DNA of 64,000 bases from Escherichia phage 4E10. Positions 16,254-58,047 of the stretch are shown one piece after another (the stretch's first letter is position 1; each line of letters opens with the position of its first letter). Under the pieces are notes generated by a model. That model was not told the DNA's origin, made no database searches, and was given only the letters and a program-made list of their open reading frames with translations. A program made the position numbers and the translations under genes. The DNA is taken from the sequence record OQ689735.1, one strand, 5' to 3'.

Positions 16254-16379
16254 ATGGTAGGAATTTTACTCTGGAACTTTATTTTATCACCAATTGCAAT
16301 TGCACATGGTGTTAATATTCCAGTAGTTACTCTTGATACATTTGTAGATTTAGCATTTGCTTTAGTTGGGTTAATTTAA
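16254..16379 (+). CDS. plus-strand mini-ORF (41 aa), hydrophobic peptide
   Basis: MVGILLWNFILSPIAIAHGVNIPVVTLDTFVDLAFALVGLI; stop overlaps gene 61 stop convergently. Confidence 0.3.
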   Translation: MVGILLWNFILSPIAIAHGVNIPVVTLDTFVDLAFALVGLI

Positions 16380-17404
16380 ATCTTAGCATATTTAGATAGC
16401 CGCATTTTAGCCATTAACCCCTGGGCAATATTATTTTTCATATATTCCATAATTTGTTCAGGGGTTGCACCTTCCTTTCTAATCATATCATTAACATCTT
16501 TTGATTTCCAGGGAGATTTATCCCAAAACATAACCCTTTCTCCTGCATCAACTAATTTAGTCATTCGCTTGATAGTGTCAGGGTGACGAGGTTCATTATC
16601 TAAAACCCACACTCGTCTATCTTTAAATGGAACAACTTCTAGGTCTAATTGACCACCCGTAATAGCTATACCATTTTCAATGAAAAGGGAATCGATAGGT
16701 CCTTCTAGAACATATACATCGCCATCTTTAACTCGTTCAACTCCATAGATTTTTGTTGCCTCAGGATAAGCTTTAATGGTGATATATTTTTGAGGAGCAT
16801 CTTTCTTTAATGCGCGTCCTTGAAAAGACTCAGCCTTTCCATTAGCATTATAAATTGGAATAACAAGACGAGGCTCAGAAATTTCCTTTTTGTATGTTCC
16901 CGGTGCGATGCTATTAACTAATTTAGGCCATTCGGTTGTAAACCAAAGATATTTCCATTTATCCTTTGGAATACAACGAGCTTTTACATATTTTATAATT
17001 GGATGGTCTTCCGCCAGTTTATCTAATCTAACACATGACGGAAGAGATTTAATTATTTTCTTCTCAGGTTGTTTAGGAAGTTCTTTAGGTTTTTCTACTG
17101 GACGACTTTTACCTTTTTCTTTTCTTATTTCAAAGATATACTCACGATATAAATCAGGTTCAAACTCCTTTAAATATATTCCGATTGGTGCATGATAGTT
17201 ACAGTTATAACAATGAATATTTCCTTCATTATTATCACCATAATACCATCCACGAGCTTTATTCTGGTCGGTTTTTGAATCTCCGCAAACAGGGCATCTA
17301 AACCGCAATTTAAAAGTTGAACTATTATTTACTTGTGTGAATTTAGGTAAATGAGCCAATGCACGATACGCAAACTCATTATCAATCCAAGGTATTGATG
17401 ACAT
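16376..17404 (-). CDS. 61: DNA primase
   Basis: 342-aa ORF; zinc ribbon CPVCGD...CYNC plus TOPRIM region; matches T4 gp61. Confidence 0.9.
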   Translation of the reverse strand: MSSIPWIDNEFAYRALAHLPKFTQVNNSSTFKLRFRCPVCGDSKTDQNKARGWYYGDNNEGNIHCYNCNYHAPIGIYLKEFEPDLYREYIFEIRKEKGKSRPVEKPKELPKQPEKKIIKSLPSCVRLDKLAEDHPIIKYVKARCIPKDKWKYLWFTTEWPKLVNSIAPGTYKKEISEPRLVIPIYNANGKAESFQGRALKKDAPQKYITIKAYPEATKIYGVERVKDGDVYVLEGPIDSLFIENGIAITGGQLDLEVVPFKDRRVWVLDNEPRHPDTIKRMTKLVDAGERVMFWDKSPWKSKDVNDMIRKEGATPEQIMEYMKNNIAQGLMAKMRLSKYAKI

Positions 17405-17406
17405 TT

Positions 17407-17571
17407 TTACTCTTCTTTTTCTTTAGATTCCTCTTTTTTCTTTTTAGGAATCTGTTCAGGACCTTTATTTACTACAGCACCTGACGTTGTTCCAGTAGAG
17501 ATATTTTCAGGACTACTACCTGAATCTCCAGCGACCATATCTTCTTTGATAAATTCTTTATATGTTTTCAT
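17407..17571 (-). CDS. mini-ORF with internal-protein-like N-terminus
   Basis: 54-aa ORF below cutoff; N-terminus MKTYKEFIKED resembles the IP capsid-targeting sequence MKTYQEFIAE; low-complexity tail. Confidence 0.4.
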   Translation of the reverse strand: MKTYKEFIKEDMVAGDSGSSPENISTGTTSGAVVNKGPEQIPKKKKEESKEKEE

Positions 17572-17614
17572 ATTAACCTCTATTCATAAAAGCATTAAAA
17601 ATTTGGTCATCAAT
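17569..17614. repeat. 46-bp direct repeat, copy 1
   Basis: 43/46 identical to 17927..17972; spans the 61.1 stop and next-gene RBS/ATG. Confidence 0.7.
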
Positions 17615-17929
17615 CGATGGAATAGCAACTTTTTCTGCATCATTTAGCAAATCATTAATTTCATCAGATAGCATAACACATGTACCTTTATTTCCTGTAA
17701 TTGTTACTGCACAATTACGAACGTTTTCTTTATTAAATTTTAGGTTAATATTTTCGTAATGAAAATCCTTTAATGCTGAATATATTTTTAAAATAAAATT
17801 GTCTTTTACTACAATAAACCCAACCTCACTATTAAAACATGGTTCATGGAAACTGTAATAAACCTTTTCATCTATAAAATCGTATGAAATTTTTTCCATT
17901 TTTAAATATGAAAATTCAGAACTATACAT
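17573..17929 (-). CDS. hypothetical protein (T4 61.1 position)
   Basis: 118-aa ORF; C-terminal tail SIDDQIFNAFMNRG shared with next gene. Confidence 0.55.
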   Translation of the reverse strand: MYSSEFSYLKMEKISYDFIDEKVYYSFHEPCFNSEVGFIVVKDNFILKIYSALKDFHYENINLKFNKENVRNCAVTITGNKGTCVMLSDEINDLLNDAEKVAIPSIDDQIFNAFMNRG

Positions 17930-17972
17930 ATTAACCTTTATTCATAAAAGCATTAAAAATTTGATCGTCAAT
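17927..17972. repeat. 46-bp direct repeat, copy 2
   Basis: Near-identical to 17569..17614. Confidence 0.7.
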
Positions 17973-18572
17973 AGAAACTTTTACTTTAGGCTGTTCTTCA
18001 AACGGTAATTCATATCCACATATTACAATTTTGTGATCGATACCAAAATACACAGAAGCAATATGATTAATATTATTTTCAGTGAAATCTAAATCAACAT
18101 CAATATCTTTTTGACTAACGCTCAAAGGATAATTAATACGAATAATTCGATTATCTTTAACAAAGATTCCACCGACATACTCTGTGTTGCGTTTAAAGTT
18201 TACACGTTTCCTAAATGAAAAATATTCAGGTTCTTTATGAGCCCGACTCATAGGACATAATGAATAGCTAGAATAAGAGATGTCAAATCCTACACCTTCA
18301 ATATGAACCAACGCGTCATGATTAAACCAATTATAATCATATGCCAAATCCATTATATTGTAATATGTGAAAGGCACCGGATTAACATCATATATTGTAC
18401 CTTTAAAATCTGCCCAGGCAACGATTTCATTATCTTTAACAATTACAAAAATTGTGCCAATAAGATATCCACGGTTATTTTCATCAGGCGTTATATTATA
18501 ACATTGTGCATCAGGAAATTTACCGTATTTAAACGGTGGATTTTTGTGCATATAATAAATCATATTATTCAC
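17931..18572 (-). CDS. hypothetical protein (T4 61.2 position; possible AdfA-like)
   Basis: 213-aa ORF; positional equivalent of T4 61.2. Confidence 0.5.
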   Translation of the reverse strand: MNNMIYYMHKNPPFKYGKFPDAQCYNITPDENNRGYLIGTIFVIVKDNEIVAWADFKGTIYDVNPVPFTYYNIMDLAYDYNWFNHDALVHIEGVGFDISYSSYSLCPMSRAHKEPEYFSFRKRVNFKRNTEYVGGIFVKDNRIIRINYPLSVSQKDIDVDLDFTENNINHIASVYFGIDHKIVICGYELPFEEQPKVKVSIDDQIFNAFMNKG

Positions 18573-18858
18573 CTGTGATTTCGGTTACGATATCTTTGTT
18601 ATCAAAATTAGGGTCACAATACAGAACATAATTATACTGCATTACACCACCAGACTTAAGCTGTTTTTGTACTTCAGCTTTCATTTCAGGACGATCGCGC
18701 TCAACGATATTCATAATATCCGCTTCAATTTGAGTTTCAACTTCAGTCTGATCTGCAGTCATAGACCATTCACATAAATCTTTATCATAACCTGCCATAG
18801 CAGGCTGAGCAGCACAAGAAGCTAAAGCAAAAATTGTAGCAAAGATAAATTTTTTCAT
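18565..18858 (-). CDS. sp: Spackle periplasmic protein
   Basis: 97-aa ORF with signal peptide; matches T4 Sp in size and position. Confidence 0.75.
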   Translation of the reverse strand: MKKFIFATIFALASCAAQPAMAGYDKDLCEWSMTADQTEVETQIEADIMNIVERDRPEMKAEVQKQLKSGGVMQYNYVLYCDPNFDNKDIVTEITGE

Positions 18859-18918: not shown

Positions 18919-19176
18919 TTATTTTAAAACTTCTGCGTAATCACATGTTACAAACTGTTTCTCTAACTTGTCGATTTTACGAAAATACCTTTTACACTGA
19001 CGAATCTGTCGCTTCGTAGGACGTACAGCAAACTTAATAAATTCCACTCGACCAAATGGAGGACTTTCTTCTGCTGGAATATCTAGCACCAATTCCCACG
19101 TATCTGCAATAAGTGCTTTGAATTGAGTATTTTTCCTGACGTTATACGGAGTAGGTTTAAATAAAACAATATGCAT
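18919..19176 (-). CDS. hypothetical protein (T4 61.4 position)
   Basis: 85-aa ORF. Confidence 0.5.
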   Translation of the reverse strand: MHIVLFKPTPYNVRKNTQFKALIADTWELVLDIPAEESPPFGRVEFIKFAVRPTKRQIRQCKRYFRKIDKLEKQFVTCDYAEVLK

Positions 19177-19177
19177 A

Positions 19178-19360
19178 TTATCCTCGGCAATCTACTTCAC
19201 ATACTTTCTTGTCATCAATGAAAGCTTTAACTAATGCTTTATTAACTTCAGCATATTGAGTAGTAGCCCATTGAACGTCATCTTTCATCATTGTGATTTC
19301 TTTAGTAAACATACTTTCATTCTTAAACCACCCCATAAAAACTACCTTTACCAATTCCAT
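19178..19360 (-). CDS. dmd: Dmd antitoxin
   Basis: 60-aa ORF; matches T4 Dmd in size, position and sequence. Confidence 0.8.
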   Translation of the reverse strand: MELVKVVFMGWFKNESMFTKEITMMKDDVQWATTQYAEVNKALVKAFIDDKKVCEVDCRG

Positions 19361-57408: not shown

Positions 57409-57596
57409 TATTCTTCTACATGTTGTTTACGACCTTTCCTATCAATAAAGGTATATTCAACGAATGTTCCAATATAGTCTTTATCTACATCATGTGGACT
57501 ATTAATTGGGCATTTAGTACGGCAAATGCGTTCCCATTGACGAATAATTACTGCTTTGTTTTTAGGATCAAACGGATGCGGGTAATGTACTTTCAT
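57384..57596 (-). CDS. small hypothetical protein
   Basis: 70-aa ORF. Confidence 0.45.
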   Translation of the reverse strand: MKVHYPHPFDPKNKAVIIRQWERICRTKCPINSPHDVDKDYIGTFVEYTFIDRKGRKQHVEEYCLKVTWL

Positions 57597-58047
57597 AATC
57601 CACCACTATTAAATCAATATCAGGAGTAAACATACCGATTAATTTAGAAACCTTATCCCAATCGCCGCCAGCAATACCACAACCTATGCGTGGAATGTAA
57701 ATTACCGGTTTAAACAAAAGGATTTCTGCCTGTAGATTTAATTCTATCATGCAGTTTACTAAAGCACCATAATCAAGATTAGGACCCGGTTCGTATTGCG
57801 TATACAAATTATAGCATATACCAAATCCCGTAGGATTATGTTTAAAAACAATAGACATATCGCCTAATTTATCACGAGAACCGTACTCGGTAGTGGTTTT
57901 ATCTATTTCTAAAATTTTGGGATAGGCTCTTGCTAATTGACCTGCTACGCCAGAGCCCATTGTGTGGAAGCAATTGCACCCGTGCGCAATAATATTACCT
58001 TGAAGAAATAGGGCGACAATATCGCCCTTGATATATTTTACAATCAT
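57568..58047 (-). CDS. macro-domain protein (T4 tk.4 position)
   Basis: 159-aa ORF; macro-like motifs IAHGCNCFHTMGSGVAGQLA and IGCGIAGG. Confidence 0.6.
   Translation of the reverse strand: MIVKYIKGDIVALFLQGNIIAHGCNCFHTMGSGVAGQLARAYPKILEIDKTTTEYGSRDKLGDMSIVFKHNPTGFGICYNLYTQYEPGPNLDYGALVNCMIELNLQAEILLFKPVIYIPRIGCGIAGGDWDKVSKLIGMFTPDIDLIVVDYESTLPASV

Follow-up and report, generated by a model that had tools for sequence, protein, structure and literature searches.

Sequence comparison supports the assignment of the reverse-strand open reading frame (ORF) at positions 17931..18572 of the window, the 64,000-nucleotide stretch of DNA from Escherichia phage 4E10 analyzed here (sequence record OQ689735.1), as adfA, the ortholog of T4 gene 61.2, of a Tequatrovirus close to RB51 and UFV09. 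The explanation that best accounts for the data as a whole, with a probability of about 0.8, is an adfA ortholog whose product inhibits DarT1-type toxins by binding to them. Neither the gene nor its role is new to the literature, Pfam has a curated entry for the family, and the databases already contain near-identical proteins, with identities of up to 99%. The novelty is mild and is confined to the mosaic allele, a possible AdfA-like superfamily at the locus and a conserved C-terminal peptide; phage 4E10 can be annotated with a His-type, mosaic adfA allele.

Identification of adfA

The preliminary description had proposed the ORF as a positional candidate for T4 61.2/AdfA. The sequence goes beyond this proposal, as the ORF is a homolog of AdfA over its full length. 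Its residues 4–213 match positions 1–211 of the 211-position profile of the Pfam family PF23813 (AdfA, anti-DarT factor A) with E=3.8e-137 and 454.9 bits, for a cut-off of 27 bits, and the match to phrog_3781 has E=2.2e-134. The proposed alignment to the T4 and RB69 proteins was made directly with four sequences and gives 83% identity to RB69 gp61.2, 75% to T4 gp61.2 and 97% to RB51 gp61.2, while the protein of UFV05 is 99% identical. A tblastn search with the window protein finds RB69 at E=1e-114 and T4 at 2e-94. The profile match, the homology to the RB69 and T4 proteins, the position of the gene and a His in the column of RB69 R164 all agree with membership in AdfA.

The window comes from a genome of the T4 type: over the 1.7 kb surrounding adfA, identity is 98.4% with Escherichia phages vB_EcoM-UFV09/05/06/10/11 and 97.1% with RB51/RB68, members of the genus Tequatrovirus. 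According to tblastn, 486 phage records encode a protein that covers at least 80% of the window AdfA, and these fall into three identity bands, corresponding to RB51-like, RB69/Mosigvirus-like and T4-like alleles.

Translation start and gene neighborhood

The ORF finder lists an uninterrupted frame of 213 codons from GTG 18572. This frame, on which the preliminary description was based, exists; translation, however, almost certainly begins at ATG 18563, which would make adfA the stretch 17931..18563 (reverse strand), encoding 210 amino acids and ending in the TAA stop codon 17933-17931. This start is likely because of the agreement of profile start, homolog N-termini, RB51 annotation and the spacing of a ribosome-binding sequence. 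The Pfam AdfA and phrog_3781 profiles both align from residue 4 of the 213-residue frame, the database homologs of the same allele type are all 210 amino acids long with the N-terminus MIYYMHK, and the same gene is annotated in RB51 with 633 nt. A Shine-Dalgarno-like AGGTGA, read from the sequence at 18569..18574 (reverse strand), lies 5 nt upstream of the ATG. The in-frame GTG extension (18564..18572, reverse strand) is probably untranslated; it precedes the point at which homologs and profiles begin and overlaps the stop of sp, GTG 18572 itself falling within the final sp codons. The sp stop TAA (18567-18565) ends one base ahead of ATG 18563.

The equivalence in position to T4 61.2, as previously claimed, agrees with the gene order. 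The genes from dmd to 61.1 are on the reverse strand, and the whole order is dmd, 61.4, sp, adfA, a 118-amino-acid ORF, 61.1 and primase gene 61. The order in RB51 is an exact match, and T4 has the same order (dmd, 61.4, sp, 61.2, 61.1, 61) except for the absence of the 118-amino-acid gene. The first gene, dmd (19178..19360), encodes the inhibitor of the RnlA/LsoA toxins (Pfam Dmd, E=1.6e-46) and is followed by the 61.4 ortholog at 18919..19176, identified by Pfam DUF7279 (E=3.4e-20) and by synteny with the T4 tifA position. The upstream neighbor of adfA is sp (spackle) at 18565..18858 (Pfam T4_Spackle, E=2.1e-45). On the other side of adfA and the 118-amino-acid ORF lie the 54-residue 61.1 ortholog at 17407..17571 (phrog_1823, E=1.5e-32; synteny) and primase 61 at 16376-17404, placed by the gene order of RB51 and T4. 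A strong promoter-like site, TTTACA-17-TATAGT, is found upstream of dmd at 19418-19390 (reverse strand) as a consensus match only; all other matches of the promoter and terminator scan were generic AT-rich ones.

Between gene 56 and primase gene 61 there is a small forward-strand ORF (16254-16379, listed with 41 amino acids). At this position RB51 has RB32ORF030w, annotated as similar to RB69ORF029w, and T4 has dam and segF near gene 56 and the primase gene instead, so that this region is variable.

Published properties of AdfA

The properties of AdfA are given by Johannesman et al. 2025 (PMC11825919), which summarizes and extends LeRoux et al. 2022. The literature bears out the earlier statement that mutations in the homolog from a related phage allow escape from DarTG: the escape of RB69 from DarTG1 is due to AdfA R164H, and T4 61.2 is adfA (PMC11825919, PMC9391042). 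Wild-type RB69 AdfA neither neutralizes nor binds DarT1; with R164H, DarT1 is neutralized and rescue is full (PMC11825919). The R164H variant binds catalytically dead DarT1 strongly in the bacterial two-hybrid assay, and it is from this assay only that direct binding between AdfA and DarT1 is known (PMC11825919). T4 AdfA, which has a natural His, rescues RB69 only on overexpression and binds DarT1 weakly. According to its published description, AdfA lacks both an enzymatic domain and structural relatives.

The primary anti-DarTG1 factor is the NADAR enzyme AdfN (gp30.3). T4 without adfA keeps full resistance to DarTG1, and the double deletion of adfA and adfN is no worse than the deletion of adfN alone (PMC11825919). 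Among the 17 Tevenvirinae tested, sensitivity to DarTG1 does not correlate with the presence of adfA or with its allele type; adfA is missing from four of them, T2 included, and those are still DarTG1-resistant (PMC11825919). The tested E. coli DarT1 may not be the natural target of AdfA, since the deletion of adfA is silent in T4 and neither presence nor allele is correlated with sensitivity. Other DarT homologs have been suggested as targets by the authors (PMC11825919).

Allele type and mosaic structure

The residue R164 of RB69 AdfA, as counted on the RB69 translation, sits in the motif NINR, and the aligned column in the window reads NINH. The corresponding His167 (210-residue numbering) is encoded by the CAT codon at 18063..18065 (reverse strand), and the surrounding sequence TENNINHIAS is identical in the window protein and in RB69 AdfA R164H. 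The window adfA thus belongs to the His-type alleles, the class reported to be able to neutralize DarT1. The column is polymorphic among the database clusters, with His in most of them, Arg in the RB69-type cluster P0013 and Asn in the cluster P0005 and the IMG/VR loci L008 and L029. An RB69-type allele with a natural His is also found (loci L009/L020), in agreement with PMC11825919.

The window allele is a mosaic of an RB69-like N-terminus and a T4-like C-terminal half. Within the first 60 alignment columns it is identical to RB69 AdfA at 49 and to T4 AdfA at only 23, the N-terminal region of the T4 protein being of a different type. In the C-terminal half it is identical to T4 AdfA at 87 of 101 aligned positions (14 differences) and to RB69 AdfA at 76 of 106 (30 differences). 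The domain carrying the His is therefore closer in sequence to that of the T4 allele, the weak binder.

Both reference proteins share the general layout of the window AdfA. RB69 AdfA belongs to PF23813 as well, is encoded downstream of sp and has the same C-terminal tail, but its wild type carries Arg in place of the native His of the window protein, and it has a five-residue insertion before the tail and an extra Gly after RAH, both missing from the window AdfA. Downstream of adfA, RB69 has two unrelated small ORFs instead of the 118-residue paralog. T4 adfA occupies the identical position, with 61.1 following directly and no paralog between.

Distribution and structure of the AdfA family

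AdfA is a family of T-even phages only. When 1.84 billion representatives were searched exhaustively with a HMMER profile, one full-length AdfA cluster came back together with five fragments or chimeras, while a word-indexed search returned 16 clusters, all belonging to PF23813, and a search of IMG/VR returned six loci; none of these searches found relatives beyond the T-even phages. Among the metagenomic proteins is one of 102 amino acids (P0020) that begins with a fragment of AdfA (MSRAHKEPEYFSFRRRVDFKRSTEYVGG) and continues with unrelated sequence, and which is probably a chimera of assembly or gene calling. NCBIfam contains no model for AdfA or for the 118-residue paralog. The AdfA domain is the only significant Pfam domain of the ORF, in which neither a NADAR nor a macro domain was found.

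No chain in the PDB is related to AdfA by sequence. The AlphaFold model of the window AdfA is of modest quality (pLDDT 66.8, pTM 0.50). In it a helix follows each of the two beta-rich regions, and His167 is placed in the helix 162-173. A Foldseek search of this model against the PDB found nothing at E<=0.001. This is in line with the published description of AdfA and fits an inhibitor of the binding type. An internal duplication of AdfA, considered because a hairpin of the type hhVKDNxIh occurs in both halves, was rejected, as the hhalign match extends over 11 residues only with a probability of 11.8%.

The adjacent paralog

The gene directly downstream of adfA (17573..17929, reverse strand) encodes a 118-residue paralog of the AdfA C-terminal domain, of the RB32ORF033c type (phrog_4122), which is absent from T4. 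It aligns with residues 111-210 of AdfA in BLASTP (E=7e-11, 38% identity), with positions 129-211 of the Pfam AdfA profile (33.5 bits, cut-off 27) and with AdfA over 80 columns in hhalign (probability 97.9%), and the RB51 gene is annotated as ‘similar to gp61.2’. The specificity-determining His of AdfA is replaced by Asn in this protein, which reads NVRN where AdfA reads NINH. Because of the Asn at this position, neutralization of DarT1 should not be assumed for the paralog.

The paralog is encoded in 333 phage records, including distant Gaprivervirus versions with 43-48% identity. A fold search of BFVD gave significant matches only to four proteins of T-even phages: a 118-residue protein with 44% identity, probably the Gaprivervirus-type paralog, a 145-residue protein of VR25, a 212-residue protein with 30% identity, apparently an AdfA, and a 157-residue protein of Yersinia phage fPS-65.

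Shared C-terminal tail and direct repeat

The C-terminal tail noticed in the preliminary description is indeed present at the ends of both adfA and the 118-residue ORF, and lies within a 49-nt direct repeat. In adfA the tail, SIDDQIFNAFMNKG, is encoded by 17934..17975 (reverse strand) and is common to the paralog and to proteins of around 146 residues from other T-even genera; in the paralog it is SIDDQIFNAFMNRG, encoded by 17576-17617 (reverse strand), and contains the peptide DDQIFNAFM. Copy 1 of the repeat (17569..17617) spans the 3' end and stop of the paralog and the start codon of 61.1, and copy 2 (17927..17975) spans the 3' end and stop of adfA and the start codon of the paralog. The copies are 92% identical, with a start-to-start spacing of 358 nt. 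A degenerate DNA pattern for DDQIFNAFM has exactly two matches in the window, where shuffled sequences give an expectation of 0, and in IMG/VR it is found only in AdfA, the 118-residue paralog and the ~146-residue protein type. The 61.1 ortholog of the window has no DDQIFNAFM tail.

In phages SP18 and MN01 the ~146-residue protein is encoded directly after sp and is followed by a 119-122-residue paralog. According to hhalign, this protein has only the 13-residue tail in common with AdfA (probability 92-95%). Tail-bearing gene pairs occur in loci L006 (2056-2496 and 2498-2857) and L007 (2062-2499 and 2501-2869).

The nine residues of DDQIFNAFM are invariant in eight gene copies from three genera. 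Synonymous differences among these copies affect six of the nine codons, and non-synonymous differences affect none. Because the codon variation is synonymous only, the peptide appears to be under purifying selection, and the pattern points to more than recent gene conversion. Every copy of the tail runs through TAA-T-ATG or TAA-A-ATG into the next gene. At its 3' end, T4 adfA has the same nucleotides as the 118-residue gene of the window, and not those of the window adfA. With only three informative sites, this weakly fits a recombination between the 49-nt repeats that added or removed the 358-bp unit.

The tail was also considered as a sliding-clamp-binding peptide. The comparison with the end of gp43 in the window, SLDFLFG, and with that of gp55 gave no support. 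The suggestion came from the resemblance of IFNAF to LFDMF, the tail of RB69 gp43. T4-type and RB69 phages have the AdfA tail in common, whereas the polymerases of T4 and RB69 end differently, so that the two kinds of tail would not vary together.

Proposed action and alternative explanations

The adfA gene would be transcribed early, together with the dmd-tifA-sp cluster, and translated from ATG 18563 into a cytoplasmic protein of 210 residues. By homology to RB69 AdfA R164H and T4 AdfA, this protein is most likely a stoichiometric, non-enzymatic inhibitor, which would bind a DNA ADP-ribosyltransferase of the DarT1 type once infection has set the toxin free. The bound toxin would be prevented from ADP-ribosylating the phage DNA, in the manner of a type II antitoxin that occludes its toxin, and His167 would be part of the interface with the toxin. 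Toward the tested E. coli DarTG1, AdfA is probably redundant with AdfN in its own phage, and its specificity may lie with other DarT variants, because the His-bearing domain is closer to the weak T4 allele. The homology, synteny, His and mosaic structure are observed in the window; DarT1 binding and neutralization are known from the orthologs, and a corresponding activity of the window allele would follow from them.

A different account, which we consider improbable, retains the gene as a genuine adfA ortholog but places its natural target elsewhere, so that the binding of DarT1 by His alleles would be a cross-reaction. AdfA, the 118-residue paralog and the ~146-residue relatives would then form a set of inhibitors whose variable bodies bind different host toxins or defense proteins, and DDQIFNAFM would perform a step common to all, for example docking to a shared partner or oligomerization. 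Such a set is suggested by the three protein types that share only, or mainly, the tail at one locus and by the BFVD fold matches, which connect the 118-, 145- and 157-residue proteins with AdfA. The tail codons, synonymous in all their variation, agree with it, although gene conversion between the 49-nt repeats could partly keep the tail conserved, and both models give the tail helix low confidence, as if it were not packed on the domain. The lack of a DarTG1 phenotype in T4 without adfA and the inability of wild-type RB69 AdfA to bind DarT1 point in the same direction, as does the authors' own proposal of other DarT homologs (PMC11825919). However, strong binding and full rescue take no more than one substitution (PMC11825919), an argument for a surface that suits a DarT-like partner from the outset, and no alternative partner is known.

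The dispensability of adfA in T4 and the continued DarTG1 resistance of the four adfA-less Tevenvirinae out of 17, T2 among them (PMC11825919), could also be read as signs that the gene is functionally inert in 4E10, a decaying or neutral passenger retained by linkage while AdfN and AdfM perform the anti-DarT work. The nearest relative UFV09 has an intact AdfN, and an ortholog of tk.4/AdfM lies within the window. This is nevertheless very improbable, since the frame is intact in the 486 records at coverage of at least 80%, many columns of AdfA stay the same even in alleles of only 61% identity and the variation in the tail is synonymous only, which together speak for purifying selection and not for decay. 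An AdfA that inhibits DarT1-type toxins by binding remains the preferred explanation.

A broader reading of the locus is tentative and somewhat doubtful, namely that it hosts a locus-bound superfamily of exchangeable toxin-inhibitor cassettes, in which the body of each protein sets the target, DDQIFNAFM is a handle and the repeat is the site of recombination. Its members may include AdfA, the 118-residue paralog and the ~146- and ~157-residue proteins of Gaprivervirus-like and Yersinia T-even phages. The shared tail may serve in docking to a common partner or in multimerization, and the peptide-coding repeat with its TAA-T-ATG junction may be where cassettes are gained and lost. If so, the 118-residue gene would encode an anti-defense factor that is directed at something different from E. 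coli DarT1.

Other anti-DarT genes and the expected effect of adfA deletion

The window does not contain adfN, as tblastn with T4 gp30.3 gave nothing significant; in these genomes the gene is positioned at ~125 kb, that is, outside the window. In UFV09, AdfN (gp30.3) is an intact protein of 152 residues with 95% identity to T4 AdfN. Since AdfN is dominant in T4 and adfN is intact in UFV09, a single deletion of adfA in this phage should, as in T4, give no phenotype on DarTG1. The preliminary description would have counted a deletion phage that shows no DarTG-dependent phenotype as evidence against the assignment. Because AdfN would mask the loss of adfA, such a result is not a valid refutation, and its use would wrongly reject a correct identification.

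A 159-residue macrodomain ORF at 57568-58047 (reverse strand; Pfam Macro, E=1.9e-7) aligns with T4 Tk.4 from end to end at 57% identity, and its best NCBIfam match is DarG, under the cut-off. Tk.4 was named AdfM, an anti-DarTG2 factor, in a 2025 preprint (bioRxiv 10.1101/2025.11.20.689424). The window therefore carries a second anti-DarT gene, an ortholog of tk.4/AdfM.

Similarity to other phage inhibitors

AdfN (T4 gp30.3, NADAR) and AdfM (T4 Tk.4, macrodomain) counter DarT toxins in the same kind of genome as AdfA, but they do so enzymatically, by removing ADP-ribose from DNA (PMC11825919; bioRxiv 10.1101/2025.11.20.689424). AdfA, unlike them, lacks an enzymatic domain and would act by binding to the toxin, and the sequences are unrelated.

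AdfB of the Vibrio phage ICP1 is a small protein that neutralizes a DarT toxin, apparently by interaction (PMC11825919). As in AdfA, a single substitution switches its specificity, and related phages are a natural source of active variants (PMC11825919). AdfB belongs to no known family (PMC11825919).

Dmd and TifA (T4 61.5 and 61.4), the neighbors of adfA, are likewise direct protein inhibitors of host toxins of toxin-antitoxin (TA) systems (PMC9391042), but they are unrelated to AdfA in sequence and have other targets, RnlA/LsoA and ToxN, correspondingly. Srikant et al. 2022 (PMC9391042) identified 61.4 as tifA, the ToxN inhibitor, described the dmd-tifA-adfA region as a possible anti-TA island and considered its other genes attractive anti-toxin candidates. 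In the window, dmd and the 61.4/tifA ortholog at 18919-19360 (reverse strand), with the promoter-like site upstream, show the layout of the T4 ‘anti-TA island’ (PMC9391042).
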